From Coriobacteriia bacterium (GTDB taxonomy: Bacteria > Actinomycetota > Coriobacteriia > Coriobacteriales > UBA8131), in NCBI GenBank assembly GCA_009783245.1, contig WRHL01000014.1:1-32367 (forward strand): a stretch of 32,367 nucleotides of DNA, read 5' to 3'. Each line of letters begins with the position of its first letter. Position 1 is the stretch's first letter. The notes under the pieces are model-generated. The model searched no databases. It was given only the letters and a program-made list of their open reading frames with translations, and was not told the DNA's origin. Below are positions 6,679-32,058 of the stretch, piece after piece. A program made the position numbers and the translations under genes.

Positions 6679-7914
6679 ATCCTGCTGCTCTGTCTCAGAT
6701 GGCGGAGCAGGTGGTGGGTACTGCGCCTGTTTCTTGCTGAACCGCTTTGCCTGAACCTGTTGCCGTAGTTCCTGCAGATGAAGGGATTTCTCGATCTTTT
6801 CCTGAGCTCTCTTGTCCCTGCGTTTTTGCCGTGCCTTGCCTATACGGGTGTTCTTGAACCTGCCGCGACTCTTCCTTATCACAATGAAGATGATCCAGAG
6901 GATAAGCGCGATTGCTACCAGAAGCCCAATAACCGGCGCCGCACCAGCGAGGGACACAACTACGTCTTCCAGGAAGCTCTTCACGTTCTCTGCTGAGAGA
7001 AGGAAGGCCTCTGACGCGCGATCGCCTAAGGGCTCGCCGTCTTTGCCGATGGTCTCTGGCGTTATCAGCTCGACGAGGGTTATCTCCACGGTGGCATAGT
7101 CGACGATCTGGTCAAGGTGGCGCTTGTTGCTCTGGTAGCCATCGAGCTCATTCAATACGTTGGAAAGATCACGTTCAAAGGCGATGATATCCTCGGCTTT
7201 CTCCGCCAGGAGAAGGTAGTTGAGAAGGCGATCCCTGCGCATCTCGAGCATCGCTATGCGTGCCTCGGTGTCGAAATACTCTGACGTCAGATCCTGAGAC
7301 CACTTGTTCTTGCTTGTCATCTCGCCAATGCCGGAAAGACCGTCAAGGAACGAGTCATAGCCAAGCGCGGGTATCTTTGCCGTTATGCAACTGGAACGTG
7401 GCTGAGGTCGGTCGTATTTTGTGGAGTTGTCTATGGTCCTTTCCGTGGAAACATACCCTCCGGACTGCCGTATCATGTTATTGATCGCCTTGTAGTCGGC
7501 ATCGAAGTTCTTGGTGTTCATGCTATAGTCAGCCCAGAAGGTGATTTTTCGCCCCGTCATCACATTGTCTGGTAAATCCATCTGATTGGTGACATCCTCA
7601 GTGTCGACCTCTACATATGTGACGGTTTCCTTTTTTTTCTTGTTGGAGCTGGAAGAGCTGGAGCTTGAAGTTGCCATTGGGGTGGCGGCGTCTTCCATTA
7701 CCATTACCTCGTACCCATACCCACCATCTGTTGAGTACTTCGGCTCATAGGGGCTTGCTGAGCTTCCCGAAGATGCTGACTGCATCGGCGCCGAATCATG
7801 TGCCTCCCGCTTTGTGTTGGAGCTGCACGCACTTATGGAAGCCACCAACAGTAGGGCCATCAGTGTAGCCAGCAGCCCTTTTATCCTCTTTCCCTTACCC
7901 TTTTGAAACATCAT
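6673..7914 (-). CDS. Membrane-anchored lipoprotein, DUF4349-like, with a C-terminal TM helix and a highly basic cytoplasmic tail
   Basis: 413 aa. Lipoprotein signal 'LLVASISACSSN', Ser-rich linker, central conserved domain, TM 'VIGLLVAIALILWIIFIVI', then a tail rich in K/R/Q. GC visibly lower than the neighbours. RBS 'gggagga'. Confidence 0.45.
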   Translation of the reverse strand: MMFQKGKGKRIKGLLATLMALLLVASISACSSNTKREAHDSAPMQSASSGSSASPYEPKYSTDGGYGYEVMVMEDAATPMATSSSSSSSSNKKKKETVTYVEVDTEDVTNQMDLPDNVMTGRKITFWADYSMNTKNFDADYKAINNMIRQSGGYVSTERTIDNSTKYDRPQPRSSCITAKIPALGYDSFLDGLSGIGEMTSKNKWSQDLTSEYFDTEARIAMLEMRRDRLLNYLLLAEKAEDIIAFERDLSNVLNELDGYQSNKRHLDQIVDYATVEITLVELITPETIGKDGEPLGDRASEAFLLSAENVKSFLEDVVVSLAGAAPVIGLLVAIALILWIIFIVIRKSRGRFKNTRIGKARQKRRDKRAQEKIEKSLHLQELRQQVQAKRFSKKQAQYPPPAPPSETEQQDS

Positions 7915-8075
7915 GGTCCTCCCTACCTCTCTTTGTAGGCATTTTCCCGTCTGCCTTTTTAATCAATACGATTCAGATAACCTAAATGTCGCTTCCCAAA
8001 AAGTTATAATTCAGTCTTAGGGAAACCGTAGCGTTGTGAACACGTCAAGATACGCTACAAGGAACAGGGAGGGGC

Positions 8076-8939
8076 TTGGATATGCAACGGCTGAAGAGAG
8101 TGTTTTTTGGATTGCTGCTTGTGTCATTTGTTATCTCTGGGACAGGCCTACTTTCAGCCTGTTCGGCTCCAGCAGGCAACGGGGCTAAAGGTGATGGACA
8201 GTCAAATGCTGAGAAAAGGACCCTGACCGTTGCCATGGAGCTTGCCTATCCGCCCTTTGAGACCAAGGATGCAACGGGCAATCCCAGCGGATTGAGCGTC
8301 GATTTCATCACCGAGTTCGCCAAGGCCTACAACTACGACATAGTCATCGAGAACACCGCGTGGGACGGCCTGATACCCTCACTGCAGACCGGGTTGGCAG
8401 ACTGTGTCATCAGCTCGATGACCATAACCGATGCTCGCGCCCAACAGGTGGATTTCAGCGATCCTTATGCCGTTGCACAACTGGCGCTGCTCACCAACAG
8501 CGGCTCGGGGATCAGCTCGATAGACGACCTCAATCAGACGGGAAAGAGCATCGCGGTCAAGACGGGATCGACCGGAGATATCTATGCGACTAACAACCTT
8601 CCCCTCACCACCATCATCCGCCTGGCTGATGAGAGCGCCTGTGTCACCGAGGTGACTCAGGGCAAGGTCGACGCGTTCATCTATGACCAGTTGACCATCT
8701 ACCGCAACCAGCAGAACAATCCAGATACAACAACAGCGGTGTTCATTCCGTTCCAGGACCCGGAGCATTGGGGTATAGCCGTCCAGAAAGGCAACAGTGA
8801 GCTTCTTGCCGAGCTGAATGAGTTCATTGCAACCAGCAAGACCGACGGCACCTTTGACAGACTGACACAAAAACACCTCCCCTCAGAGAAGGCTACCTTT
8901 GATGAGCTGGGGTTCAGATGGTTCTTTGATTTCAGCTGA
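8076..8939 (+). CDS. Polar amino acid ABC transporter, substrate-binding lipoprotein
   Basis: 287 aa. Lipoprotein signal 'GLLSACSAPAG'. Family-3 SBP motifs 'LTVAMELAYPPFE' and 'DAFIYDQLT'. RBS 'gggagggg'. Confidence 0.75.
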   Translation: MDMQRLKRVFFGLLLVSFVISGTGLLSACSAPAGNGAKGDGQSNAEKRTLTVAMELAYPPFETKDATGNPSGLSVDFITEFAKAYNYDIVIENTAWDGLIPSLQTGLADCVISSMTITDARAQQVDFSDPYAVAQLALLTNSGSGISSIDDLNQTGKSIAVKTGSTGDIYATNNLPLTTIIRLADESACVTEVTQGKVDAFIYDQLTIYRNQQNNPDTTTAVFIPFQDPEHWGIAVQKGNSELLAELNEFIATSKTDGTFDRLTQKHLPSEKATFDELGFRWFFDFS

Positions 8940-8959
8940 GCGCCCGCGTCTGCAACAGG

Positions 8960-9763
8960 GTGAGCCCTTTCAAGCACATACTCAACCTTTTCCTTGCGAC
9001 CAAGGACAGGCCAACCCCTCCTCTCAAGGGGGCAGTCAACTACCTCTTGGTCTGCCTGCTGGTCATTGTGGTGTTCTGGGTATCGATCTCAGCGCTTGAC
9101 GTGAGTTTCAGCTTTGGGTTTGTTGGCTTCTATGGGATACGGATACGCGATGGATTCATCCTCACGGTTCAGCTTTCTGTTGTCAGCTTGATCATAAGCC
9201 TGGTGCTGGGAGGCCTGGTCGCCGGAGGGCACCGGTCACGCATCCTGCCGTTGCGCTACCTGTGTGACGCATATGTCAAGGTGATCAGAGGCACGCCCCT
9301 TATCGTACAGATATACCTTTTCTTCTACATCATCGGTACCGCCTGGGGAATCAAGAACCGTTTCATCGCAGGCGTGCTCATCCTCTCCATCTTTGAGGGC
9401 GCCTATATCGCAGAGATCATCCGTGGCAGCTTCCTTTCGCTCGACGAGACGCAGTTGGAAGCTGCGCGTTCGGTGGGATTCACGAGAAGACAGACTCTGC
9501 GCCACGTGATACTTCCACAGATGATCGCACGGACCCTTCCTGCCCTGACGGGGCAGTTCGCCAATGTAATCAAGGACTCGTCGCTGCTTTCCATCATCGC
9601 GGTCATAGAGATGACACAGACCATGCGCGAGATAAGCGCCACAACCTTCCAATTATTCGAGAGCTATATACTCCTGGGTGCGCTCTACCTGTGCCTTACG
9701 CTGCCTATCACCTTTGTCAGCCGCCTGTTTGAGAAAAGGTTCAACTATGCACGTAAGGCTTGA
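8960..9763 (+). CDS. Polar amino acid ABC transporter permease
   Basis: 267 aa. Probable GTG start. 'VKVIRGTPLIVQIYLFFY' and the EAA-type loop 'LDETQLEAARSVGFTRRQTL' are typical of HisM/GlnP-type permeases. Confidence 0.75.
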   Translation: MSPFKHILNLFLATKDRPTPPLKGAVNYLLVCLLVIVVFWVSISALDVSFSFGFVGFYGIRIRDGFILTVQLSVVSLIISLVLGGLVAGGHRSRILPLRYLCDAYVKVIRGTPLIVQIYLFFYIIGTAWGIKNRFIAGVLILSIFEGAYIAEIIRGSFLSLDETQLEAARSVGFTRRQTLRHVILPQMIARTLPALTGQFANVIKDSSLLSIIAVIEMTQTMREISATTFQLFESYILLGALYLCLTLPITFVSRLFEKRFNYARKA

Positions 9764-10481
9764 GGATATTTGCATGGATTTTGGTGACGCCACCGTATTG
9801 AGCCAGGTGAGCTTCTCTGACCATATAGACAAGCTTGCCATCATCGGGCCTTCTGGTGGTGGGAAGACAACGCTTCTGCGTATCATCGGCGGCCTTTTGA
9901 CGCCAAGCGCTGGCCGCCTGTATCTCGATGGGGAGGAAGTCGATTTCTTGGAGAACAGCCTCCCCGGATACCGGGCGCAGCTTGGCTATGTCTTCCAGCA
10001 GGGGGGGCTTTTCCATCATCTCAGCGCCCTGAAGAACATCGCCCTTCCCCTGCAGGTGGTGCATGGCGTAAGCGAGGAGGAGTCCCTGGAGCGTGCGCGG
10101 CAACTGCTGGAGCGCTTTGGGTTGGGCCAGGAAGGCGACAAGATGCCTGCCCAGCTGTCTGGAGGCCAACAGCAACGTGCCGCAATCGCACGGGCCATCG
10201 CAGCCTCGCCAAAACTGGTCCTGCTCGACGAGCCTACCAGCGCACTTGACCCTGAGTACACCAACGAGGTACTTGATGTCATCAATGACCTGGGGAAGAC
10301 CGGCATCCGCTTCATCATCGTCACCCACGAGATGGGTTTCGCCCGGCATGCCTGCGATAAGATAGCCTTCCTTTGCGGGGGGATGCTCCTGGAGTATGGC
10401 CCGAGCTCAGAGTTGTTTGAGGCCCCATCGACGCCTGAGCTGCAGAGGTTCCTGGGGAAGCTTTTGGAGTGGCGGGTGTGA
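9747..10481 (+). CDS. Amino acid ABC transporter ATP-binding protein
   Basis: Walker A 'GPSGGGKTT', signature 'LSGGQQQRAAIARA', Walker B 'LVLLDEPTSALD'. Start placed at 'MHVRLEDICMDFG' (ATG 9747). Its 5' end overlaps the permease 3' end. The TGA stop lies inside the first unit of a 12-bp tandem repeat. Confidence 0.8.
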   Translation: MHVRLEDICMDFGDATVLSQVSFSDHIDKLAIIGPSGGGKTTLLRIIGGLLTPSAGRLYLDGEEVDFLENSLPGYRAQLGYVFQQGGLFHHLSALKNIALPLQVVHGVSEEESLERARQLLERFGLGQEGDKMPAQLSGGQQQRAAIARAIAASPKLVLLDEPTSALDPEYTNEVLDVINDLGKTGIRFIIVTHEMGFARHACDKIAFLCGGMLLEYGPSSELFEAPSTPELQRFLGKLLEWRV

Positions 10482-10535
10482 TGGTGGGTGTGATGGTGGG
10501 TGTGATGATGGGTGTGATGATGGGTGTGATGGAGG
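10476..10535. repeat. Tandem repeat, 12-bp unit 'GTGTGATGGTGG' about 5 copies, overlapping the ABC ATPase stop codon
   Basis: Direct reading: gtgtgatggtgg / gtgtgatggtgg / gtgtgatgatgg / gtgtgatgatgg / gtgtgatgg. Confidence 0.85.
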
Positions 10536-10660
10536 CGGTTGCGACGGAAGCGCCGCGGGGTTTTGGCAAGAGCTTTGGCAAGAGCCGCATACTGCTGTAC
10601 ACTATAGTGCTAAAGTGTTTCTAGGAGCATAACGCTACTACATTACCGGAAGGACGGCCC

Positions 10661-11533
10661 ATGCTTTCACTCGCCTTGCCCAAAGGTAGCCTTGAGGAAC
10701 AGACCTACAAGCTCTTCGAGGACGCTGACCTGACGCTTCGTAAACCGAATCGAGGCTACAACCCCACCATCGACGACCCACGGATATCCAGGGTGAAAAT
10801 CCTCCGACCACAGGAGATCCCTGTCTTTGTCGCATCGGGGGACTTCGACCTTGGCATATCGGGGCACGACTGGGTGACCGAAAGCGGAGCTGATGTCATA
10901 GACATCGCGGAACTGCCCTATGCGAAGACCGGCACCGGTATCGTCAAAATGGTGCTTGCCGTTTCTGATGAGTCCACGGTGCGCTGTGCTCGTGATATCG
11001 CCCCTGGCAGCCGGATAACAACCGAGTTCCCCAATATCACGCGTTCATTCTTTGAGCAGCTTGGCATCCCCGTGGAGGTCTTCTTCAGTTATGGGGCGAC
11101 TGAGGCAAAGGTCCCCGACTTCATGGATGCGCTGGTAGACCTCACGGAAACCGGATATACCCTGAGACTCAATGGGCTACGCATCGTTGAGACGGTCCTT
11201 GAGTCTACAACCCGCCTGTTCACGAACCGCGCGTCCTGGGAGGACCCCGCAAAACGTGAGGCGATAGAGGCGATCCGCACTCTGCTCCTTGGCGCGATCG
11301 AGGCCAGAGGACGTGTCCTGCTGCTGATGAATACGCCGGCCGAATGCCTTGACGCCGTCATCGCAGAGCTGCCCGCCATGAAGCGCCCCACCATCAGCCA
11401 GCTTCATGGTTCGGATGACTACTCGTTGAGCACTGTCGCCGACAAAGCGAGCGTGAACGTCCTTATCCCCCAGCTGAAGGCCGCGGGCGCAGAGGACATC
11501 CTGGAACTGCCTATCAACAAGATCGTGAAGTGA
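10661..11533 (+). CDS. hisG: ATP phosphoribosyltransferase (long form)
   Basis: 290 aa. 'LSLALPKGSLEEQT', 'ILRPQEIPVFVASGDFDLGISGHDW' and a C-terminal regulatory domain are typical of long-form HisG. Confidence 0.8.
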   Translation: MLSLALPKGSLEEQTYKLFEDADLTLRKPNRGYNPTIDDPRISRVKILRPQEIPVFVASGDFDLGISGHDWVTESGADVIDIAELPYAKTGTGIVKMVLAVSDESTVRCARDIAPGSRITTEFPNITRSFFEQLGIPVEVFFSYGATEAKVPDFMDALVDLTETGYTLRLNGLRIVETVLESTTRLFTNRASWEDPAKREAIEAIRTLLLGAIEARGRVLLLMNTPAECLDAVIAELPAMKRPTISQLHGSDDYSLSTVADKASVNVLIPQLKAAGAEDILELPINKIVK

Positions 11534-11706
11534 CTGGATAGCTGTTCGCCTGCGGTAGTTGCCGCATCCACGCGCTTGGACCTTCTGGCTGACAAAGCCT
11601 GTTCAAACTGACAGAAAGTCCCATTTAAAGTCACTAATTAGCGCCCCTGATAAGGCTTTTATAAGATAGAATACAGCCAGGATTGTCAAGTGGTATGGAG
11701 GGTACT

Positions 11707-13401
11707 ATGAAACCTGTAAAGACACGTCTGACAATTGTTCTCTGCGCTCTTGTTCTGCTGTTAGCAGGTTGTGCAGCTGCACAGGATCCTGGTAAAAGCA
11801 GTTCAGTGCCAGAAACGGATTCTCTCCAGGTCAGTGCTGAGCTGTTCCCCCTGTCCTCAGAATGCATCAGGTGTCATAACGATGTTTTTCCAGGTGATGG
11901 CACTCACTATTCGTTTGTTGAGGACTGGTTCAACTCTATCCATGGTCAATCCTCAGTCGACCCGCTTTTCATGGCGGTGGTTCGGCGTGAGACCCTGGAA
12001 CATCCCGATGCCTCTGATGACATCCAGGCGATCTGTGCCAGCTGCCATCTACCAATGGCTGACATGATGGCTATCGCCACAAACCAATCCCGTAGTTTCT
12101 TGGATAATGCCGCCCTTTCTGGCCATGAGCTTAACCAGCTGTACCAAGATGGTGGTTCTTGCATGTTCTGCCACCAGATCACCTCATCGCCCATCGACGG
12201 GAACACCGCTTTCCGCGATACGATAATGTCTGTCAACCTGCACCAGGCTTCTGAGGGCCAGACCCGCTACCTGTATGGTTATCACCCGAGCAGCACGATA
12301 GCCCAGCAACCGATGATACAAGCCCTGGGCTACTCCACCGAGCAAAGCTTTGTAGAACGAAACGAACGGATCTGCACTGTTTGCCACACGCTCTATACGG
12401 ATTCTTTCACGGTAGACGGTCAGCCTACTGGGATGCAGCTGCCAGAGCAGGTAGTTGCCCTGGAGTGGAAGGGATCGGATTGGGGCGATAATTCCTGCCA
12501 ATCCTGCCATATGCCACCTGTTTTAGATGCGGGGCCATTCTCTAATCAGAATGTTGCTGAAGCTACGCAGGGTAGGATCTCCCTGCACAGCTTTGTAGGC
12601 GGCAACGCATACCTTCTGCAACTTAATGGAGGTACCGATGGCTCGCTGGAAAAAGGTGTGACGGCTACAACGGAATTCCTGCAGTCTCAGACGGCAACAC
12701 TTACGCTGAACAGCAGCATTGACGAGACTTCCGGGTCAGGTCCTGTGCTTATGCTGGATGTGGCGATAGACTCTCAGGTCGGCCACAAGTTCCCCACTGG
12801 GTTTCCTTCTCGACGGGCATGGATACACGTGCAGGTGTTTGATGAGGCGGGTTTCCTGATCTATGAATCTGGCGGCTACAACGCTGAAGGCATGATCCTT
12901 GACAACAATGCTGACCTGATCAAAGGAGCATTTGAACCGCACTATTCGATCATCGACCAACCTGGTCAGGTCCAGATCTACGAGTCAGTGATGCTCGACA
13001 GTGACGGCCTGGCAACAACCAGCCTGCTTCAAGGGGTTGTCTATGGCAAGGACAACAGGATCCTCCCTATCGGGTTTGAGAAGAATGAGCAGCAGAGAGA
13101 GGGATTTGCCGGAATCGATAAGAATGACAAGTCGGGTGATGCGGCGGTTGTCGGTGAGGCAGTGGAGGATGAGGATTTTGTCCAGGGTGGCGACATCACC
13201 TACTATCGTATCAGCCTGCCAGCCGATATTGGCGCTGTGGAAGTAAGGGTCGAATTACTCTACCAATCTGTTGGTTACCGCTTTATGGAAGACCTGCTGG
13301 GCCATCCGTCGCCTGAGCAACAGATCCTGGCAGACCTTGTCAAACAGCATCCCAACCTGCCGGTGTTGGTCGCCAAACAGGAGACCAAAGTCATCAGATA
13401 G
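11707..13401 (+). CDS. Lipoprotein pentahaem c-type cytochrome
   Basis: Five CxxCH motifs: CIRCH, CASCH, CMFCH, CTVCH, CQSCH. Sec/lipobox signal 'LVLLLAGCAAAQ'. RBS 'ggaggg' 6 nt before ATG 11707. About 270-aa haem-free C-terminal domain. GC visibly lower than the surroundings. Confidence 0.7.
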   Translation: MKPVKTRLTIVLCALVLLLAGCAAAQDPGKSSSVPETDSLQVSAELFPLSSECIRCHNDVFPGDGTHYSFVEDWFNSIHGQSSVDPLFMAVVRRETLEHPDASDDIQAICASCHLPMADMMAIATNQSRSFLDNAALSGHELNQLYQDGGSCMFCHQITSSPIDGNTAFRDTIMSVNLHQASEGQTRYLYGYHPSSTIAQQPMIQALGYSTEQSFVERNERICTVCHTLYTDSFTVDGQPTGMQLPEQVVALEWKGSDWGDNSCQSCHMPPVLDAGPFSNQNVAEATQGRISLHSFVGGNAYLLQLNGGTDGSLEKGVTATTEFLQSQTATLTLNSSIDETSGSGPVLMLDVAIDSQVGHKFPTGFPSRRAWIHVQVFDEAGFLIYESGGYNAEGMILDNNADLIKGAFEPHYSIIDQPGQVQIYESVMLDSDGLATTSLLQGVVYGKDNRILPIGFEKNEQQREGFAGIDKNDKSGDAAVVGEAVEDEDFVQGGDITYYRISLPADIGAVEVRVELLYQSVGYRFMEDLLGHPSPEQQILADLVKQHPNLPVLVAKQETKVIR

Positions 13402-13410
13402 CAAGTTGAT

Positions 13411-13465
13411 TTGAGGTTAGTCGTCAAAATGACGACCAACCTCAATGGTCGGGACGACAGGATTT
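13411..13465 (-). repeat. Duplicate of the tRNA-Pro 3' end (22 nt) plus its downstream hairpin, with compensatory stem changes
   Basis: 13444-13465 'aatggtcgggacgacaggattt' is identical to 13711-13732. The hairpin 13411-13445 'ttgaggttagtcgtcaaaatgacgaccaacctcaa' parallels 13676-13712 'tttgaggttagcccccataatgggggctaacctcaaa'. Confidence 0.75.
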
Positions 13466-13603
13466 CCGATCGCTCACTTCGTTCGCGCTCTCCCACCTTC
13501 GCTCACGTTGTTCGCTCGGTCTCGCGCCTACAGGCCTGCCACAGGCAGCCCTGTTTAACGGCGCCTTGCCCTGGGGTTCGCGCAAGCGCTCCCCATTCTC
13601 ACT

Positions 13604-13628
13604 GAAAACGTGCCACTGGCACGTTTTC
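13604..13628. terminator. Perfect hairpin 'GAAAACGTGCC ACTG GCACGTTTTC', candidate bidirectional terminator / structural element
   Basis: 9-10-bp perfect stem read directly. No clean T-tract beyond the stem itself. Confidence 0.3.
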
Positions 13629-13650
13629 CTGGCGTTCGAATCCCTTCCCA

Positions 13651-13668
13651 GGTTCAAATCCTGTCGTC
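13651..13668 (+). repeat. Inverted partial copy of the tRNA-Pro T-arm / 3' acceptor ('GGTTCAAATCCTGTCGTC')
   Basis: Matches the T-arm/acceptor 3' half of the adjacent tRNA, but on the opposite strand. Confidence 0.55.
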
Positions 13669-13712
13669 TAAAGCATTTGAGGTTAGCCCCCATAATGGGG
13701 GCTAACCTCAAA

Positions 13713-13789
13713 TGGTCGGGACGACAGGATTTGAACCTGCGACATCCTGCTCCCAAAGCAGGCGCGCTACCAAGCTGCGCTACGTCCCG
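13713..13789 (-). tRNA. tRNA-Pro (anticodon TGG)
   Basis: Minus-strand sequence 'CGGGACG TA GCGC AGCTTGGTA GCGC G CCTGC TTTGGGA GCAGG ATGTC GCAGG TTCAAAT CCTGT CGTCCCG A CCA'. 7-bp acceptor, D, anticodon and T stems all pair. The anticodon loop is TT-TGG-GA. Encoded CCA end. 77 nt. Confidence 0.85.
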
Positions 13790-13883
13790 ACTCCCAAAGT
13801 ACAGCCTTGGTATTATAGCAAAGCGGGAGCTGCAGAGAAGTCCAGTTCGCGGGAAACGGAAGTCTGCCGCAATACAGGGTCAT

Positions 13884-14312
13884 CTACTCGAAAATGCCAC
13901 TATCAGTCTCCCGCTTGACCATATACTTTCCTTCTACTGCGCGGAAGCCAAAACGCTCATACAGGCCATGTGCGTCGTTTGTCTCTAACCTGCCCTTCAA
14001 ACCTCTGATGCTTTCATGCCCAACCGCCGCTTCCACAAGGGCCTTCCCCAGCCCAAGCCCGCGGTACGCATCATCGATAATCACGTCGCCCAGCCAGTAC
14101 ATAGTCGCATAATCAGTCAAACAGCGAGCAAAGCCCACCTGTTTCTCCTGGTAATATACCCCAAAACACAACGCGTGTTCAAAGGACAGCTTGATAACAT
14201 CCTCAGTCCTGCTCTTCGCCCAATAAGACTCAGCCAGCATCTCCCTGATCCTGTGAACCTGCAGCTTGTCCTTATCGTCACTGATTATGAAACCGTTGTA
14301 TTCGATCTCCAT
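13884..14312 (-). CDS. GNAT family N-acetyltransferase
   Basis: 142 aa. Acetyl-CoA-binding motif 'RGLGLGKALVEAA' and 'YERFGF'. RBS 'gagggttgagg'. Confidence 0.7.
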   Translation of the reverse strand: MEIEYNGFIISDDKDKLQVHRIREMLAESYWAKSRTEDVIKLSFEHALCFGVYYQEKQVGFARCLTDYATMYWLGDVIIDDAYRGLGLGKALVEAAVGHESIRGLKGRLETNDAHGLYERFGFRAVEGKYMVKRETDSGIFE

Positions 14313-14319
14313 GAATACC

Positions 14320-14928
14320 TCAACCCTCGCTTACCCCACGCTCCTCTTGAAGCTGAGCGATGATCTCCTTGTACCTTTTCACAGGACGCATATAGTTTAT
14401 ACCTACCGCGAAAAAGCAGGCAGCTATCGCATAGAACGCACCGAGTTCAAGCGAGATAGCCAGGGGTATATAGGCAATCGCTATCACTATAAACGTGATG
14501 CCCGCCCCCTCGACATATTTCTTCCGTGCCTGGTACTCGGCAATGCGCGAGTCAAGGTCCGAGGTTATCTCAAAGGGGCCCAGCGCCGCAGGCCTTAAAG
14601 CGATAACACCTATCCTTGAGCCCAGGGTGTTGCGCTGCTCCACAATCAGGGCGCCGTCCGACACAAGCAGGTCGCTTAGTGCGGTAGCCGCCTGTTTATC
14701 ATAGAAGCCGTTCTTGGTAACCGTGATGGCAGTGCGGCAGATATACTCCCCGGGAGCACAGGGGACAAAGGTGAACTGGAACTCACCGTTCAAACGGATG
14801 AGTCGCCACCCCTGTTCCAGCATCTGGTTGGCGTACTCCTCCAGCGCCAGCAGGTCAGAGCCAATCGACTGGTTGTTCTGGATATGCTCGTCACCTTTGA
14901 TCTTCTTCCACTTTGGAGACTCCATCAT
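14320..14928 (-). CDS. DUF2812-like membrane protein (common PadR partner)
   Basis: 202 aa. Two C-terminal TM helices 'ITFIVIAIAYIPLAISL' and 'FYAIAACFFAVGI'. Overlaps the padR stop by 4 bp (ATGA). This arrangement is typical of PadR-DUF2812 pairs. Assignment is from memory. Confidence 0.4.
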   Translation of the reverse strand: MMESPKWKKIKGDEHIQNNQSIGSDLLALEEYANQMLEQGWRLIRLNGEFQFTFVPCAPGEYICRTAITVTKNGFYDKQAATALSDLLVSDGALIVEQRNTLGSRIGVIALRPAALGPFEITSDLDSRIAEYQARKKYVEGAGITFIVIAIAYIPLAISLELGAFYAIAACFFAVGINYMRPVKRYKEIIAQLQEERGVSEG

Positions 14929-15284
14929 CTTCCCTTCTCATCCTTGTGACTCTCGACCGCCTGCGTAAAGCCCGCAGCCCCTCCAGCCACCGCCTGTCCG
15001 TTTTGCAGCAATTCTGCAAGACGATGCATCTCCGCCTGTACCGCTGCCTGCCCCTCCGCCGTGATCACGTACTCCTTCTTGCGGTCATACTGCGCACCCT
15101 CAACAAGCCAGCCCTTCGCAACCAGCGAGCCCAGCGCCCCATACAGTGTGCCAGCGCCCAGGTGCACGCGCCCGCCACTCATTGTGTCCACCCTTTGCAT
15201 GATGCCGTACCCATGAAGCGGCTCATAAAGACTCAGCAATATGTAGTAAGCGGCCTCCGTCAAAGGAGTAGGGCCATCAGCCAT
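14925..15284 (-). CDS. PadR family transcriptional regulator
   Basis: 119 aa. 'YYILLSLYEPLHGYGIMQRV...GTLYGALGSLVAKGWL' is a PadR winged-helix signature. RBS 'gaggag'. Confidence 0.8.
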   Translation of the reverse strand: MADGPTPLTEAAYYILLSLYEPLHGYGIMQRVDTMSGGRVHLGAGTLYGALGSLVAKGWLVEGAQYDRKKEYVITAEGQAAVQAEMHRLAELLQNGQAVAGGAAGFTQAVESHKDEKGR

Positions 15285-15626: not shown

Positions 15627-16724
15627 ATGCGGTTTCAGCTGAAAGAGTACATCCAACCTGATTTTCAGGCCCTCAAGCTTGTCGATGCCCCTGATGCCCA
15701 GCTGGTGCCTGCCCCGGCGGACGGGGTCGCTCCCTTGGACTATCATGCCACAACCATCTTCCCTGAGTACTTCAAGGTGGCAGGCCAATGGTTGCTTGCA
15801 CAGGAAAGCCGTATGGACTGCGTGGCGGTATACATACCCAAAGAGCACAGGGTTGCGGTGCGGGAGTTCCGCACCCTCAAGAAAGGCGAGCCTGTCTTTG
15901 TGGGGCGCGCAGAAGATGGCAGCCAGGGCATCTACGTGCACCTTGACGCCTTTGATGATATGCGCCAGATGACAGCTGACAGCTTCGCGTTCCGTCAGGG
16001 GCGCAGCCGGGAGACCGCCTTCTCGCTCGACTATGACTTTCTGTATGAGCAATTACGGTACGAGAAGGAGCATGGCTACATTGTCTGGGTGGCGGGCCCA
16101 GCTCTCACCTTTGACGCTGACAGCCGCAATGCCTTCTCGCTTCTGTGCGAGCATGGCTATGTGCATGCCCTGCTTGCAGGCAACGCGCTCGCAGCCCATG
16201 ACCTGGAGGCCGCCTACCGCAAGACCGCACTGGGGCAGGATATCTACACCCAGGTCAGCCACCCCAACGGACATTACAACCACCTGGATACCATCAACCG
16301 CGTGCGCCAATGCGGCTCTATTCCCGCATTCATACAGCAGGAGCACCTGGATAACGGCATCCTGTACCAGTGCGTCAGGCACCAGATACCCTTTGTCCTC
16401 ACCGGCTCCATACGCGATGACGGCCCTCTTCCCGAGGTGCACGCAGATGTCTATAGCGGACAGAACGCCATGCGTGAGCAGCTCAGCAAGGCGACCACGC
16501 TTATCTGCATGGCAACCGCCCTGCACTCCATAGCCGCAGGCAACATCACCCCCTCCTTCCGCGTGATGCCTGACGGAAAGATCCGCCAGGTGTATTTCTA
16601 CCTGGTGGATATCTCGGAATTCACCGCGAACAAGCTGGGCGACCGCGGGAGCCTCTCGGCAAAGAGCATCATCACCAATGTGCAGGACTTCATTGTGAAT
16701 ACCAGCCGGGGGCTGATCCCTTGA
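15627..16724 (+). CDS. Conserved hypothetical enzyme (about 365 aa). Possibly LOR/SDH-like (TIGR00300) / ornithine-cyclodeaminase-like family. Unverified.
   Basis: Strong RBS 'ccaggaggtaatatc' before ATG 15627. Soluble protein with motifs 'HGYVHALLAGNALAAHDLE' and 'LTGSIRDDGPLPEV'. No confident family call from the sequence alone. Confidence 0.4.
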   Translation: MRFQLKEYIQPDFQALKLVDAPDAQLVPAPADGVAPLDYHATTIFPEYFKVAGQWLLAQESRMDCVAVYIPKEHRVAVREFRTLKKGEPVFVGRAEDGSQGIYVHLDAFDDMRQMTADSFAFRQGRSRETAFSLDYDFLYEQLRYEKEHGYIVWVAGPALTFDADSRNAFSLLCEHGYVHALLAGNALAAHDLEAAYRKTALGQDIYTQVSHPNGHYNHLDTINRVRQCGSIPAFIQQEHLDNGILYQCVRHQIPFVLTGSIRDDGPLPEVHADVYSGQNAMREQLSKATTLICMATALHSIAAGNITPSFRVMPDGKIRQVYFYLVDISEFTANKLGDRGSLSAKSIITNVQDFIVNTSRGLIP

Positions 16725-16732
16725 GCCGCTGA

Positions 16733-16778
16733 CCCTGAACCCTGGGCCTGAACCCCTGGGCCTGAACCCCTGGGCCTC
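16733..16778. repeat. Tandem repeat, about 14-bp unit 'CTGAACCCCTGGGC' x3, intergenic
   Basis: Direct reading: ctgaaccctgggc / ctgaacccctgggc / ctgaacccctgggc. Confidence 0.8.
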
Positions 16779-16873
16779 TGAGCCAATGCGGCAACTGGGT
16801 TAGACCCGATCTCCTCGTAAACCAGAACGCCTGACAACCAGCCAGACCTATCGACCATGAAAGTGAGCTGTCC

Positions 16874-18193
16874 ATGAAGAGAATCATCATTATCGGAGCA
16901 GCGGGGCGGGATTTCCACAACTTCAATACCTGTTACCGGAACAACCCGGACTATGAGGTTGTGGCGTTTACCGCGGCGCAGATACCCGATATCGCGGGAC
17001 GCAGGTACCCGGCTGAGCTGGCTGGCAGCGGATACCCGGACGGGATTCCCATTTTTCCCCAGGATGATCTGGAGAGGTTGATACGGGAGTATGGGGTGGA
17101 TGAGTGCGTCTTCTCCTACAGCGATGTGACCTACAGTTTTGTCATGGGCCTGAGTGCGCGGGTGAATGCTGCCGGGGCGTCGTTTACGCTTCTGGGGCCC
17201 GCGCAGACCATGCTGAAGAGCGAGAAACCGGTGGTTGCCATTGGGGCGATCCGGACCGGCTGCGGCAAGAGCCAGACGGCGCGAAGGGTCATCGAGTGCC
17301 TCAACAAGAGGGGCCTAAGGGTTATCGCCATACGCCACCCCATGCCCTACGGCGACCTGAACGCGCAGGCTGTACAGCGTTTTGCCTCCCTGGATGACCT
17401 ACAAAGGCACAGCTGCACCATTGAGGAGATAGAGGAGTACGAGCCGCACATCACTAGCGGTAACGTGATCTATGCAGGTGTTGACTACGAGGCGATCCTA
17501 CGGCAGGCTGAGCAGGACCCGGCTGGCTGCGATATCATCCTCTGGGATGGCGGGAACAACGACTTCCCCTTTTATGAGCCTGACTTGATGATAACGGTGG
17601 TGGACCCGCACCGGCCGGGGCATGAGCTGTCCTATTACCCGGGTGAGGTTACGTTGCGCCTGGCGGATGTGGTGGTGATCAACAAGATCGACAGCGCGGA
17701 TTACGCTGGCATCCAGACGGTCAGGGACAACATCGCCCGGATCAACCCCGGGGCTTTGGTGGTGGATGCTGCTTCCACCATCAGGGTTGACGCACCAGAG
17801 CTGGTGAAGGGCAGGCGGGTCCTGGTGGTTGAGGATGGCCCCACGCTGACGCATGGGGAGATGCAGCTGGGTGCGGGGGTTGTTGCTGCCCAGCGCTTTG
17901 GCGCTGCTGCCATTGTGGACCCGCGCGCATATGCCGTGGGCCGTCTGGCTGATACCTATAGGACTTACCCCGGCATTGGCAAGGTGTTGCCTGCTATGGG
18001 TTACGGCGAGCAGCAGGTCAGCGACCTGGCCGCGACCATAGAGGCCACCCCCTGCGACACGGTTGTCATTGCAACTCCCATCGACCTGAGCAGGATCATC
18101 AGCATTGACAAGCCCCATACCCGGGTGAGTTATGACCTGCAGGAGATAGGGGCCCCTGACCTGGGCAGCATCCTGGACGAGTTTCTAGTATGA
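16874..18193 (+). CDS. P-loop NTPase resembling cyclic 2,3-diphosphoglycerate synthetase (COG2403-like)
   Basis: 439 aa. N-terminal Rossmann-like 'RIIIIGAAGRDFHNFN'. Central Walker A 'AIGAIRTGCGKSQTA'. Walker-B-like 'CDIILWDGGNND'. The size fits the cDPGS family. The assignment is from recollection of the family architecture. Confidence 0.45.
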   Translation: MKRIIIIGAAGRDFHNFNTCYRNNPDYEVVAFTAAQIPDIAGRRYPAELAGSGYPDGIPIFPQDDLERLIREYGVDECVFSYSDVTYSFVMGLSARVNAAGASFTLLGPAQTMLKSEKPVVAIGAIRTGCGKSQTARRVIECLNKRGLRVIAIRHPMPYGDLNAQAVQRFASLDDLQRHSCTIEEIEEYEPHITSGNVIYAGVDYEAILRQAEQDPAGCDIILWDGGNNDFPFYEPDLMITVVDPHRPGHELSYYPGEVTLRLADVVVINKIDSADYAGIQTVRDNIARINPGALVVDAASTIRVDAPELVKGRRVLVVEDGPTLTHGEMQLGAGVVAAQRFGAAAIVDPRAYAVGRLADTYRTYPGIGKVLPAMGYGEQQVSDLAATIEATPCDTVVIATPIDLSRIISIDKPHTRVSYDLQEIGAPDLGSILDEFLV

Positions 18194-18257
18194 CAAAGGG
18201 TATGACAAAAGGGACCGTCCCCTTTGTCATGACAAAGGGGACGGTCCCTTTTGTCAT
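18189..18257. repeat. Family-A palindromic element (two overlapping 'ATGACAAAGGG...CCCTTTTGTCAT' units). It supplies the TGA stop of the upstream gene.
   Basis: 'tatgacaaagggtatgacaaaagggaccgtcccctttgtcatgacaaaggggacggtcccttttgtcata'. 18217-18258 is a perfect palindrome. Confidence 0.85.
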
Positions 18258-18311
18258 AAAAAAGCGTAGAATCTCCCTTACGCAAATATGGGTGGGATAA
18301 GGAGTACTGCG

Positions 18312-19130
18312 ATGAGATACTACGTGGTTGACGCGTTTACCGATGAGCTGTTCAAAGGCAACCAGGCGGGCGTATGCCTGCTTGATGATGTGCTTCCCGC
18401 CGAGGTTATGCAGAGCATCGCCGCGGAGAACAACCTGGCTGAGACCGCTTTTATCGTCAAGCGTGATGGCTACTATGACCTGCGCTGGTTCAGCCCTGAG
18501 GTGGAGATCGACCTCTGCGGCCATGCGACCCTGGCCAGCGCATTCATCGTCTCCAGCTTTGTTGATCCAGGCGCTGAAACCCTGCGCTTTGAAACCATGA
18601 GCGGCCCTTTGCTGGTCACCCGCAAACAGGGCCTCTTTGAGATGGATTTCCCTACGAGAAGACCAGAGCCGGTTGAGTTGACACCGCTCATGAGTCAGGC
18701 CATAGGGCTACCCGTGCTGGAGGCCCATCTGTCTCGGGACCTGCTTCTCTTGGTTGAGAGCGAGCAGCAGGTACGGGAATTGGTGCCGGATTTCGCGCTG
18801 ATGCAGCAGATCCCCAACTGCTTTGCGGTGGTGGTCACCGCGCCGGGCGATGCTGCCGCTGCGCTGGGCGATGCGGTCACCGCGCCAGGCGGGCAGGTGG
18901 ATTTTGTCTCGCGCTTCTTTGCCCCCGGCGCCGGCGTACCCGAGGATCCCGTGACTGGCTCATCACACTGTACGCTCATCCCCTTCTGGGCCGAACGCCT
19001 GCAGAAAGACCAGTTGGTAGCCCGGCAACTCTCAAAGCGAGGCGGCACGCTGTATTGCGAGAACCGCGGCGAGCGCGTCAAGATCGCCGGCAAAGCGGTG
19101 CTCTACCTGCAGGGCGAGATCCTACTCTAG
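18312..19130 (+). CDS. PhzF family phenazine-biosynthesis-like isomerase
   Basis: 'MRYYVVDAFTDELFKGNQAGVCLL', 'AETAFIV', 'LRWFSPEVEIDLCGHATLASA' and 'VTGSSHC' are PhzF/DAP-epimerase-fold signatures. RBS 'aaggag' before ATG 18312. Confidence 0.75.
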   Translation: MRYYVVDAFTDELFKGNQAGVCLLDDVLPAEVMQSIAAENNLAETAFIVKRDGYYDLRWFSPEVEIDLCGHATLASAFIVSSFVDPGAETLRFETMSGPLLVTRKQGLFEMDFPTRRPEPVELTPLMSQAIGLPVLEAHLSRDLLLLVESEQQVRELVPDFALMQQIPNCFAVVVTAPGDAAAALGDAVTAPGGQVDFVSRFFAPGAGVPEDPVTGSSHCTLIPFWAERLQKDQLVARQLSKRGGTLYCENRGERVKIAGKAVLYLQGEILL

Positions 19131-19498
19131 GGAAGCACGCTTCCTGATGGTGTTGCGCTGCGAGATTGACAGTGTTACGTTGTGGGAAAGGCAGCGCCCT
19201 ACCGCGAGCCTGGCAAGATTCCGTTAGGAGACATGAGCTTGGTGGTGCCTTCTTAGGAGATCCATAACCTCCTGCCATCGGTAATGCCTCTGCGTATGCC
19301 TGCTCAGTGGTGCCCGCTAGCCGGGCGACCAGTTCCGCATCCCCTTTTCCCTGACAGAAGCAAAGCGCGCGACTCAGCTGCATTGAGGGGTGAACACTGG
19401 TTAAAGGACAGGCAGGTCACATATAATCAGTATTTATCGTTTGGATTGGAATTTCACGATTATCCAAAACGGCGCAATGCATTGAGGGAGCAAGGTTT

Positions 19499-20689
19499 AT
19501 GTTGGTTGAGAAAAGCAAGCTGGACCCTGCCGACCTTATCGGCAGGACGGTAATCATTACCGGCGGTGGCGGGGGAATCGCAACGGAGGCGGGTAGAGCG
19601 CTTGCCTATTTGGGTGCAAACGTGGTTTTGGCGGAATTGGATGAACAGAGGGGTCTGGCAGCCCAGCAAGATATCGGAACTGGCTGGAGGGGCAGGATTG
19701 TCTATCATCCGCTTGACCTTGTCGATTCACAGAGCATTGCCCGGCTCTCCGATTTTGTCATACGTGAATTCGGCCACGCTGACGCCATTATCCATAACGC
19801 CACGATCACTCCTCTAGGCAGCGTTGAGGACTTGCCGGTGAGCTCCTGGGACACCAGTTATCTGGTCCATCTGAAGGGGCCCCTGGAGTTGACGCGGCGG
19901 TTTTTGCCCGGCATGAGAGAGCGCGATTACGGCACCATTGTGTTCAATCCTTCCTCCGGGGCGATTCCGTTCATGGGAGCGTATGAGGTGTTCAAGGGCG
20001 CCCAGGTGATACTGGCGAACACCCTTGCCGCGGAACTGGAGAACACCAAAGTCCATGTTTTCTCCATTGGGCCGGGGCTGGTAAAGACCAAAACCGCGAC
20101 TGAGGCGATAGCACAGATTGCCCCTTGGATGGGAATGTCCCTCGATGAGTTCTATGCCGTGAACGCTGACAGTATAGTCAGCGCAGAAGAGGCCGGAACG
20201 TCGTTTGCTGTCTCGCTGTTGCTTGCTGAAAAATACCATGGAAACGAGATTGGCGGCATTCAGGCACTCATGGATGCGGGGATCATCGAAAAGGACGGCG
20301 ACTCTGAGCAGACTCAAGCCTGCGACTCCTATTCACCTCAAAACGAGGAGATCCTGGCCCGCATTGGTAAGACCTACGACGAACAATATGAGGGGTGGAG
20401 AAACGAGAGTCTGTTCAAGCGGGATTGGATCCTGCGCGACTTCAAGAAGCAGGTTGGTCGCCCTGCCGATGAGGTGCAACAAATACTGCGTGCATATATT
20501 TTGTCCTACAGGGACGCTGGAGTTGATGAACAGCGCAAGCTGAGGGGATTGCTGGCATCTCTACGCGCCTACTATTCCCACCAGATCGAAATGACCCATG
20601 GCTATGTCAAGGACGCCAAAACCAGAGCCGAGTGGATCGCGATCATCGAAACCTGGATCGCCGACATCGATTGCCTGGTGAAATCATAA
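19499..20689 (+). CDS. Short-chain dehydrogenase/reductase (SDR) domain protein with a ~140-aa C-terminal extension
   Basis: 396 aa. Rossmann 'VIITGGGGGIATEAGRALA', then 'NATI' and a later 'Y...K' catalytic-like segment. The C-terminal 250-396 region has no obvious family. RBS 'gagggag'. Confidence 0.6.
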   Translation: MLVEKSKLDPADLIGRTVIITGGGGGIATEAGRALAYLGANVVLAELDEQRGLAAQQDIGTGWRGRIVYHPLDLVDSQSIARLSDFVIREFGHADAIIHNATITPLGSVEDLPVSSWDTSYLVHLKGPLELTRRFLPGMRERDYGTIVFNPSSGAIPFMGAYEVFKGAQVILANTLAAELENTKVHVFSIGPGLVKTKTATEAIAQIAPWMGMSLDEFYAVNADSIVSAEEAGTSFAVSLLLAEKYHGNEIGGIQALMDAGIIEKDGDSEQTQACDSYSPQNEEILARIGKTYDEQYEGWRNESLFKRDWILRDFKKQVGRPADEVQQILRAYILSYRDAGVDEQRKLRGLLASLRAYYSHQIEMTHGYVKDAKTRAEWIAIIETWIADIDCLVKS

Positions 20690-20730
20690 CTGCAGGCAGG
20701 CTGGCAGCCGCTTACACGCTTACATGAACC

Positions 20731-29211: not shown

Positions 29212-32058
29212 ATGATTACCTTAGAACCTGATACTATGACGATAAATACAACTCCCGAAAAACCCGTCACAAGGCCGGAACTGCTGGCGCCCGCCGGTAG
29301 TCATGACGCCCTGCTCGCCGCCCTGAGCGCGGGCGCCGATGCCGTCTACCTGGGAGTTGAGGACTTCAACGCCCGCCGCAATGCCACAAACTTCCAGCTG
29401 GATAGGCTTACTGAGGTCTGCGACCTGGTCCACCTCGCCGGCAGGCGGCTCTACCTCACCTTGAACACGCTGGTGTTGCCGGACGAGACCGCTGAGGCGC
29501 TGGAAGTCGCACGTCAGGCTTGGTACGCTGGTGTCGACGCTGTGATTGTCTCCGATCTGGGGCTGCTCGACCGCTTGGCTACAGAGTTGCCACAGCTTGA
29601 GTTGCACGCCTCTACCCAGATGAACCTCCACAGCGGGCCCGCCGTGCGCCAGGCTGCCCGCTTGGGCGCCTCGCGTGTCACACTGTCGCGCGAGCTTTCC
29701 TTGGAGCAGATAGCGCAGATCGCCCAGGAAGGCGTGCCGCTTGAGGTCTTCGCCCATGGCGCGCTCTGCGTCTGCTATTCTGGCCAGTGCCTGTTCTCCT
29801 CGTTGGTGGGCCGCCGCTCCGCCAACCGCGGCCTGTGCGCCCAGGCATGCCGTCTGCCCTACCGCCTCATCGACACCTCCACCGGCAAGCGCCTCAAGGC
29901 GCCCGGCGAGCACCTGCTCAGCCCCGCTGACCTCGCCACCATCGACATCCTGCCCCAGCTTGTCGCCAGCGGTATCACGTCCCTCAAGATCGAGGGCCGC
30001 ATGAAGTCAGCTGCCTATGTCGCCACTGTGACCCGCGTTTATCGTGAAGCTTTAGATGGGCCCGCTAGTGTGGAAGGGATGCCTCAGCTGACTCGCGTCC
30101 CGAAAGCCGATCATGACAAAGGGGACGGTCCGTTTTGTCATGATTGCGAGGGCCTGCAAGCCGCTCAAATCCCTCGTCATTGCGAGGAGCGAAGCAACGC
30201 GAGCGACGTGGCAATCTACGGCAGCGGTCAGGGATCAGTGGCGCTGACACAGCGAAATGACAAAGAGGGCGGAGCGCATGAGATTCTCTCGGAGACTTTC
30301 TCGCGGGGTTTCACCACCGCGTATCTTGAGGGCGACCGCACAAACAGCATGATGAGCTATGCGCGGCCCAACAACCAGGGAGTTGCAGTGGGTCGCATTG
30401 CCGCGCTGGACAAGGGGCTGGTGGCCCTTGCACTGACCAAGCGGGTCACCCAAGGCGACCTGCTTGAGATCCGCACCTCGCGAGGACGTGCCACCGTTAC
30501 GCTTGAAAACTTTTGGGCCTCTTCTGACACCAAGAAGCCTCCGCTTACTGAGGCAGCAGAAGAAACCCGTATCTGGCTGCGGATCCCCGACCCCGTAAGC
30601 CCGGGCGACCGGGTATTCCGCATCCGCAACGCCGAGCTGCAGGATGAGGCCGAGTCCCACTACAACAACACCCTCTTCCAAGGCAACAACGGCCTGGTAG
30701 ACCTTCACGCCCAGGTCACCGCCCATCTCAACCATCCCCTGACCATCACCTTCACCACAGACTGGGACGGGGCACATGACAAAGGATATGACAAAGGGGA
30801 CGGTCCCTTTTGTCATATGCTTGTCACCCCGGGCTTGACCCGCGGCCTACCGTCGCCATCGCAGGACGATAATGGCTGTCGTCCAAACGGGCTGCCTTCC
30901 CGCCAGGCCTCGCCCATCCAAGGCACTGCAAGCGGCGACCCACTCCAGCCAGCCCGCACCAAAGCCCTCACCCCAGAGGACATCCGCGAGCACGTTGGAC
31001 GCGTAGGCGGCACCCCCTTCAGCATCGCATCCTGGGACATCCAACTTGACGAGGGCGTGGGCCTTGGCTTCTCGCAGCTGCACAGCCTGCGCACCCAGGC
31101 GCTCGAGGACCTCACGGAGAACCTGCTGCAACCCTGGCGGCAACGCCGCCTCACCAAGCGCGATGACCCTCCAGCCTTAGCGCCCGCGCAGAAAGGCAAG
31201 CCACGTGTTGCCGCCATAGTGCGCGACGCGGCCAGCGCAAAGGCCGCGGTACTCGGCGGCGCGGAGCTCATCTACCTGCACTACCTCACGTTTGAGGCGG
31301 AAAGCCAGCCAGACGCCAACGGCAGCGGCGGCAACGCCAGTAGCCCCGGCGCCAGCCCCAAAAGGCTGCCGACAAAGGTGCCCATCGTAGCGCTGCTGCC
31401 CGCCATCACCCATGACAGCGAGCTACCGCCCCTGCTGGCAAGCCTCAAGAACCGCAAAGCGGCCGTCGCCAACAACCTGGCGCAGGTCGAACTGCTCGCC
31501 GACACGCTCGACAGCCTGGAAGCCGGCCCCTCGCTGGGCATTGGCAACCAGGACGCCCTCGCCCTGGCCGTCAAATGCAAACTGTCGCAGGCCTGGCTGA
31601 GCCCCGAGCTCAGCTACCAGGACATAGCGCACATCTCCCCCACCGCACCGCTGCCGCTGGCGCTGACCATTGTGGGCCGCCAGGAGCTCATGGTCACCGA
31701 GCACTGCCTGCTCATGGCCCAGGGCCCCTGCGACCAACGCTGCGCCACCTGCGCCCGCCGCAAGGCCCCGCGCCTGCTGGAAGACCGCAAAGGCTACCTC
31801 TTCCCCCTGCGCACCGACCAGGCCGGCCGCAGCCACCTCTTCAATTCCGTGCCGCTTGACCTGGTGCCCTCCATGCCGGAGATCGTCAGCCTGGGCATCT
31901 CCACCCTGGTGGTCGACGGTACGCTCATGACGACAAAAGAGTTGCGCGCGGAGGTTGAACGCGCCACGCGTGCCCGCGACCTGGCCGTCAGGGGCGCCGG
32001 CAGCCTCCCCAAGCGCGAGGGCCAGACCACCGGCCACTTCTTCCGCGGCGTGTGGTAG
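29212..32058 (+). CDS. Peptidase U32 family protein (long form with DUF3656-like and second U32-like region). Carries in-frame insertions of the dispersed repeats.
   Basis: 'RPELLAPAGSHDALLAALSAGADAVYLG', 'TQMNLHS', 'EVFAHGALCVCYSGQCLFSS' and 'KIEGRMKS' are U32 signatures. The start may instead be ATG 29236. Repeat elements at 30109-30275 and 30775-30818 are translated in frame ('HDKGDGPFCH'). Confidence 0.7.
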   Translation: MITLEPDTMTINTTPEKPVTRPELLAPAGSHDALLAALSAGADAVYLGVEDFNARRNATNFQLDRLTEVCDLVHLAGRRLYLTLNTLVLPDETAEALEVARQAWYAGVDAVIVSDLGLLDRLATELPQLELHASTQMNLHSGPAVRQAARLGASRVTLSRELSLEQIAQIAQEGVPLEVFAHGALCVCYSGQCLFSSLVGRRSANRGLCAQACRLPYRLIDTSTGKRLKAPGEHLLSPADLATIDILPQLVASGITSLKIEGRMKSAAYVATVTRVYREALDGPASVEGMPQLTRVPKADHDKGDGPFCHDCEGLQAAQIPRHCEERSNASDVAIYGSGQGSVALTQRNDKEGGAHEILSETFSRGFTTAYLEGDRTNSMMSYARPNNQGVAVGRIAALDKGLVALALTKRVTQGDLLEIRTSRGRATVTLENFWASSDTKKPPLTEAAEETRIWLRIPDPVSPGDRVFRIRNAELQDEAESHYNNTLFQGNNGLVDLHAQVTAHLNHPLTITFTTDWDGAHDKGYDKGDGPFCHMLVTPGLTRGLPSPSQDDNGCRPNGLPSRQASPIQGTASGDPLQPARTKALTPEDIREHVGRVGGTPFSIASWDIQLDEGVGLGFSQLHSLRTQALEDLTENLLQPWRQRRLTKRDDPPALAPAQKGKPRVAAIVRDAASAKAAVLGGAELIYLHYLTFEAESQPDANGSGGNASSPGASPKRLPTKVPIVALLPAITHDSELPPLLASLKNRKAAVANNLAQVELLADTLDSLEAGPSLGIGNQDALALAVKCKLSQAWLSPELSYQDIAHISPTAPLPLALTIVGRQELMVTEHCLLMAQGPCDQRCATCARRKAPRLLEDRKGYLFPLRTDQAGRSHLFNSVPLDLVPSMPEIVSLGISTLVVDGTLMTTKELRAEVERATRARDLAVRGAGSLPKREGQTTGHFFRGVW
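30109..30275. repeat. Composite family-A + family-B + partial-A repeat block, embedded in frame in the U32 CDS
   Basis: 30109-30145 is the palindrome 'gatcatgacaaaggggacggtccgttttgtcatgatt'. 30172-30222 is 'cctcgtcattgcgaggagcgaagcaacgcgagcgacgtggcaatctacgg'. 30255-30273 is 'gaaatgacaaagagggcgg'. Confidence 0.8.
30775..30818. repeat. Family-A palindromic element within the U32 CDS
   Basis: 'catgacaaaggatatgacaaaggggacggtcccttttgtcatatg'. Confidence 0.85.

Follow-up and report, generated by a model that had tools for sequence, protein, structure and literature searches.

Results

The stretch of DNA analysed here, called the window throughout, comprises the 32,367 nucleotides of contig WRHL01000014.1 (assembly GCA_009783245.1) from a bacterium of the class Coriobacteriia, and the analysis concerns four genes, named G1 to G4, that follow one another on its + strand between positions 15627 and 20689. 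All four open reading frames (ORFs) reported in the initial annotation were present, and each has strong homology, which excludes chance ORFs in all four cases. Our data suggest that the region probably contains a loose two-gene arginine/ornithine module, made up of G1 and G2, beside two unrelated neighbours, G3 and G4. Both G1 and G2 are members of known families that were described recently.

G1 (15627-16724, + strand, 365 amino acids) is preceded by the ribosome-binding site (RBS) GGAGG, 7 nt upstream. The protein scores 586.9 bits against the NCBIfam model NF052526, which is named "putative NPN-dependent ornithine cyclodeaminase", and passes its equivalog cutoff of 440. A LOR/SDH-like enzyme of TIGR00300 had originally been proposed; the relationship to that model is real (238 bits), but the score lies under its cutoff of 411, and it is NF052526 that is passed instead. 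The Pfam domain ArgZ-like_C_2nd is matched with 206 bits. In the PDB, the G1 sequence matches Alr4995 and Sll1336 (ArgZ/AgrE), each in the C-terminal half, and also 3c2q, at E = 1e-48 to 1e-54. Ornithine cyclodeaminases using a nickel-pincer adenine-dinucleotide cofactor have been described (Desguin 2025, as cited in PMC13524815). Judged from these matches, G1 is putatively a variant ornithine cyclodeaminase of the TIGR00300/ArgZ-C superfamily, in the clade of NF052526, with a likewise putative nickel-pincer dependence. Lar cofactor genes were absent from the ten commonest neighbour families of 80 G1 homologs.

G2 (16874-18193, + strand, 439 amino acids), which is preceded by a weak purine-rich RBS (GAAAGTGAG), has no NCBIfam match and only a marginal match to Pfam CobW. 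Homologs that are 68-87% identical occur in Oscillospiraceae, Bacteroidales, Treponema, Desulfovibrio, Bathyarchaeia and Methanomassiliicoccaceae, and the family is named 'cyclic 2,3-diphosphoglycerate synthase' at NCBI and 'predicted GTPase' at JGI. It is widespread in bacteria, including Desulfovibrio and Dysgonomonadaceae, with a few eukaryotic members; homologs were seen in the green algae Pycnococcus and Pseudoscourfieldia. The proteins from Hyperthermus butylicus and Pyrodictium occultum share 47% full-length identity with G2 over 432-437 amino acids (E = 8e-152 and 3e-139). The AlphaFold2 model of G2 has a predicted local distance difference test score (pLDDT) of 87, and its top Foldseek match is M. 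fervidus cyclic 2,3-diphosphoglycerate synthetase (cDPGS; 8ORU, E = 6e-19, 15% identity), followed by LpxK (4LKV, 4EHX; E = 1e-8) and then HypB. The motifs identified are a Walker A sequence GAIRTGCGKS (residues 124-133), a Walker B sequence WDGG (224-227) and NKID (270-273). The last of these occupies the G4-motif position of P-loop proteins (not to be confused with gene G4), where NKID is found in 118 of 119 sequences of the bacterial clade of the family; in the crenarchaeal clade (T/N)KxS prevails there, and the Asp is kept in only 4/119. NKxD is a motif of guanine specificity, and its presence suggests that the bacterial clade perhaps prefers GDP/GTP.

These properties are in line with those of ArcE. 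TK2200 (ArcE) of Thermococcus kodakarensis is an arginine synthetase that interconverts Arg + ADP + Pi and citrulline + NH3 + ATP (Michimori, Yokooji, Atomi, PNAS 2024, PMC11032458). According to the same paper, ArcE homologs had previously been annotated "putative GTPase", are located near arcB and arcC, occur widely among bacteria (Desulfovibrio, Clostridium, Petrimonas and others) and in a few eukaryotes, and have Hyperthermus and Pyrodictium among their listed genera, while the ArcE model is LpxK-like and weakly cDPGS-like; ArcE is genetically required in T. kodakarensis to supply ornithine for proline synthesis (PMC11032458). Every one of the ArcE descriptors in PMC11032458 was reproduced independently for the G2 family. 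By homology, G2 belongs to the family of the arginine synthetase ArcE, as one of its bacterial members, and would be expected to catalyse the same kind of reaction. Two other candidates had been considered for G2. A nickel-delivering G3E metallochaperone, which the weak CobW and HypB matches had brought up, was dropped given the arginine/carbamoyl-phosphate gene contexts and the ArcE paper, and a carbamoyl-phosphate- or ureido-forming enzyme or DgcN-like acetyltransferase (fold matches 1dts, 2obn, 7xrj) was superseded by ArcE. A literature search for 'COG2403' gave nothing relevant.

The initial annotation had described G2 as a cDPGS-like P-loop protein. The likeness in architecture was borne out, with M. 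fervidus cDPGS as the best structural match over the whole length of G2, and many G2 homologs bear the corresponding NCBI name; the sequence itself, however, points away from this enzyme. Besides the low identity of the structural match, similarity at the sequence level covers no more than about 100 residues of the cDPGS chain 9sxb (family profile, E = 6e-7), and phmmer gave E = 0.11 against cDPGS 8ORK. In cDPGS, K145 and R146 are the P-loop pair that binds 2,3-diphosphoglycerate (PMC10690619). This Lys-Arg pair is replaced in G2, where the profile alignment sets RTGCGKS against GKRVGKT of 9sxb, and at the nucleotide-specificity motif G2 has NKxD where 9sxb has TLAD. According to PMC10690619, the cyclic product is reported only from hyperthermophilic methanogens; unlike these hosts, the carriers of the G2 family are gut and sediment anaerobes, in which it lies beside arginine and pyrimidine genes.

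The neighbourhoods of G2 homologs in 80 genome loci and of G1 homologs in 80 metagenome loci were examined for conservation. Arginine or pyrimidine genes are present in 25 of the 80 G2-homolog loci. Downstream of the G2 homolog, pyrB-pyrI is found in 18 loci, almost all of them labelled Bacteroidota, and the arrangement with a divergent argS and downstream pyrB-pyrI is mostly found in Bacteroidales; such a context can be understood for this family because ArcE and ArcB together provide carbamoyl phosphate for pyrimidines (PMC13260591). Carbamate kinase (arcC) directly adjoins the G2 homolog in two loci (L056 and L066). In two Oscillospiraceae loci (L009, 7992-17054, and L083, 6001-12785) the ArcE homolog heads an argC-argJ-argB-argD-argF operon, and neither argG nor argH was found within these operons, which hints at a possible anabolic role of ArcE in these loci, where it would take over the two steps that lead from citrulline to arginine. 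In an archaeal locus (L008) argC, argJ and argB lie downstream of the G2 homolog. A carbamate kinase-ArcE fusion (P0247) was also found, a singleton on a 2.8-kb contig. The further ArcE-family representatives noted, P0354 and the P0259 cluster, include an ArcE homolog in which intein and LAGLIDADG domains precede the matched C-terminal part, and the green-algal homologs.

None of the 80 genome loci has G1, G3 or G4 within 8 kb of the G2 homolog, and no G3 or G4 was found near the G1 homolog in any of the 80 metagenome loci. A G2 homolog stands beside the G1 homolog in only one of the latter (L100); there it is the gene immediately upstream, 13 bp away, in an order that reverses that of the window. 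The closest syntenic relative, locus L081, has the gene order Band_7-MurB-G1-G2-G3-orf115, with identities of 84% (G1), 87% (G2) and 82% (G3) and with G2 and G3 overlapping by 4 bp. The G1-G2 block aligns to L081 in a single alignment that includes the spacer (79% identity); G4 with its flanks (window positions 19131-20730) and the hairpin insert between G2 and G3 are absent from L081. Since neither the neighbourhood samples nor L081 retain G1 to G4 together, the four-gene cluster is not a conserved unit, and neighbourhood conservation was a check that the initial annotation had itself set beforehand.

The spacers of the window are 149, 118 and 368 bp long and thus not short, contrary to what had been claimed; the description of the RBSs as good is correct for G1, G3 and G4 and fails for G2. 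The G1-G2 spacer (16725-16873, 149 bp) carries a 14-nt unit, CCCTGGGCCTGAAC, three times at 16740-16781, and in L081 other short repeats, CCGCGGTGGC-like, take the place of this unit. In the G2-G3 spacer (18194-18311, 118 bp) a palindromic repeat element of 27 nt, ATGACAAAGGGGACGGTCCCTTTTGTCAT, is present in two copies in tandem, which as a pair (18201-18258) form a perfect palindrome with 29-nt arms and an RNA hairpin of -51.4 kcal/mol (z = -10.3). This element, 27-29 nt long, has 9 matches in the window against 0.03 expected, at 89-106, 30113-30141 and 30788-30818 in addition to the pair, and two of its four sites are inside a U32-peptidase ORF of 948 amino acids (29212-32058) that is still open. 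Relative to L081, the pair at 18201-18258 is an insertion between G2 and G3. The G3-G4 gap (19131-19498) consists of 368 bp of non-coding DNA within a 1.6-kb segment missing from L081, and neither a gene nor an Rfam family was found in it. An antisense ORF of 101 amino acids (19078-19383, - strand), for which no support was obtained, extends across this gap and could be a remnant of the insertion that brought G4. Scanning of the + strand revealed no canonical terminator between the G1-G4 genes, the G1-G2 spacer included. Searches of the spacers for riboswitches and other RNA elements gave only hairpin noise under the gathering scores, and tRNA-Pro is the sole Rfam family at gathering score in the whole window.

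G3 (18312-19130, + strand, 272 amino acids, RBS AAGGAG; an alternative longer start at 18288 would give 280 amino acids) matches Pfam PhzC-PhzF (PF02567) with 189 bits and TIGR00654 with 125.5 bits against a cutoff of 76. Its closest solved structures, 4dun and 1s7j, are structural-genomics entries deposited as putative or family-level PhzF, and no phz genes (phzA-G operon) were found in the window. By its family matches G3 is an ordinary PhzF-family isomerase, as had been proposed, and it is syntenic with G1-G2 only in L081.

G4 (19499-20689, + strand, 396 amino acids, RBS GAGGGAG) was likewise correctly recognised at the outset as a short-chain dehydrogenase/reductase (SDR) with a C-terminal domain of no known family. 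Pfam adh_short is matched with 111 bits over residues 17-203; the SDR motifs comprise TGGGGGIA at 21-28 and S152, Y162 and K166, which are invariant in 48 homologs. In the AlphaFold2 model (pLDDT 89) the Rossmann core extends to about residue 260 and is followed by a disordered linker and then by a C-terminal domain of five helices (280-395). The tail of about 135 amino acids has no match in Pfam or among PDB sequences, nor among PDB folds, because the alignments of the fold matches listed span about 250-290 columns and the SDR chains matched have about 230-300 residues. Homologs of about 390-400 amino acids from Firmicutes keep this architecture over their full length, and the neighbourhoods of G4 homologs are unrelated. 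G4 is thus a classical SDR whose helical tail is conserved, a separate gene outside the G1-G2 module.

Relative to L081 the window also has a 9-kb block between MurB and G1 (6673-15284), containing DUF4349, an amino-acid ABC transporter, HisG, an ORF of 572 amino acids, tRNA-Pro, GNAT, DUF2812 and PadR genes. The 572-amino-acid ORF has a match below threshold to an MtrC/MtrF-like cytochrome domain (28 bits against a cutoff of 30), and in L081 the tRNA-Pro is located upstream of Band_7 instead.

Discussion

The initial annotation had placed this combination of genes outside any described pathway and had suggested a compatible solute or a modified amino acid as product. Since G1 belongs to an ornithine cyclodeaminase family and G2 to the ArcE family, the two fit a described route instead, that from arginine via citrulline and ornithine to proline. 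In this route G2 would convert arginine to citrulline with gain of a nucleoside triphosphate (NTP); an ornithine carbamoyltransferase, necessarily encoded elsewhere in the genome, would form ornithine and carbamoyl phosphate from citrulline, and a carbamate kinase is possibly encoded elsewhere as well; G1 would then convert ornithine to proline and NH3. Run in this direction, the whole route would yield NTP, carbamoyl phosphate and proline. Family membership, fold and neighbourhood counts are results of the analysis, whereas what G1 and G2 catalyse, their coupling and the way the flux runs are inferred from them. G3 would be a gene that travels with G1-G2 in this lineage only, and G4 a separate gene, present here and not in the nearest relative.

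The pairing of G1 and G2 is the observation that links the two enzymes. They are adjacent in the window and in L081, with G1 preceding G2, and independently in L100 in the opposite order. This makes two independent events among about 80 G1 loci, where a rough estimate (2 neighbouring positions among about 2,500 genes) gives about 0.06 by chance. The two genes might nevertheless have come together accidentally, with G2 serving carbamoyl-phosphate/arginine supply and G1 acting on ornithine or another diamino acid. Adjacency is rare in the sampled loci and the neighbourhoods of both families are highly variable, as this would predict, and in two loci (L124, 4378-9101, and L125) the G1 homolog is found in a different context, directly after ygeY, ygeW (a knotted carbamoyltransferase) and arcC. 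The G1 homolog of L124 passes NF052526, so this variant cyclodeaminase may also serve another carbamoyl-linked catabolic pathway. The recurrence of the pair in both orders, far above the rough chance expectation, and the fact that only two steps separate the G1 and G2 products in an arginine-to-proline route that has been demonstrated argue against an accidental pairing, and we regard it as rather unlikely.

Several observations, the ygeW-arcC context of L124 and L125 among them, weigh against an arginine-to-proline module. The partner gene is absent from 79 of the 80 G1 loci and from all 80 G2 genome loci, and the 149-bp spacer and the weak RBS of G2 leave co-transcription of G1 and G2 unproven. 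The 32-kb window contains no gene for ornithine carbamoyltransferase, carbamate kinase or LarB/C/E. The model NF052526 itself carries the label 'putative'. As for G2, the assignment to ArcE was made through members of genera named in PMC11032458 and not through the TK2200 sequence, the last protein search having reached Crenarchaeota and not Thermococcales; with its NKxD motif, G2 may work with a nucleotide other than the ADP/ATP used by the characterised enzyme; and our literature search found no assayed bacterial ArcE.

A single operon of all four genes for a new small-molecule pathway appears very unlikely. The genes share one strand without a canonical terminator between them, and G1-G2-G3 are syntenic in L081, where G2 and G3 even overlap; against this, the arrangement is not conserved beyond this one close relative (0/80 and 1/80 loci), G4 is missing there and lies 368 bp from G3 in the window, a hairpin of -51 kcal/mol separates G2 from G3, and the G1 and G2 families already have assigned reactions. 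That G2 should be a genuine cDPGS, as its NCBI product name has it, is extremely improbable in view of its P-loop, nucleotide motif and gene contexts.

The contexts of the G2 family (carbamate kinase, pyrBI, arg operons and ornithine cyclodeaminase) all indicate arginine and carbamoyl-phosphate metabolism. It is tempting to speculate that the bacterial ArcE clade with NKxD is a GDP/GTP-dependent arginine synthetase used in two ways that have not been described: together with a nickel-pincer ornithine cyclodeaminase as an arginine-to-proline module (the window, L081 and L100), and as a one-step replacement of ArgG and ArgH heading the argC-J-B-D-F operons of Oscillospiraceae (L009 and L083). 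As a whole this combined proposal is tentative, and we would not call it probable. Among bacterial proteins that carry the name "cyclic 2,3-diphosphoglycerate synthase" or "predicted GTPase", thousands appear to be homologs of arginine synthetase, which is of practical value for annotation. If the pairing of G1 and G2 is functional, gut anaerobes would have a way of turning arginine into proline that conserves energy, built from two enzyme families whose descriptions date only from 2024 and 2025.

It is informative to compare the proposed module with the systems to which its parts are related. With ArcE TK2200, G2 shares the family (47% identity to members in the named genera) and the P-loop fold with its LpxK/cDPGS likeness, and the G2 family is likewise linked to carbamate kinase and carbamoyltransferase genes and to ornithine/proline supply; G2, however, comes from a mesophilic bacterial clade with NKxD, and it adjoins an ornithine cyclodeaminase gene, not arcB or arcC. 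M. fervidus cDPGS (8ORK, 8ORU) has the same overall two-domain architecture and P-loop core as G2 and differs in host organisms and gene contexts. G1 shares the ArgZ-like_C fold and domains with the NPN-dependent ornithine cyclodeaminase of TIGR00300 (Desguin 2025, Int J Biol Macromol 330:147799) but falls below the TIGR00300 cutoff into the separate model NF052526. The fold is also that of the C-terminal domain of ArgZ/AgrE (PDB 6LRF, 6JUY), with E = 1e-54 to the C-terminal half of Alr4995. Compared with the arginine deiminase pathway (arcABC), the proposed route would have the same net conversion of arginine to ornithine and carbamoyl phosphate, with ArcE in place of ArcA; the ArcE step would be reversible and would conserve one extra NTP, the pathway genes of the window are unclustered, and the end step would be a cyclodeamination to proline.

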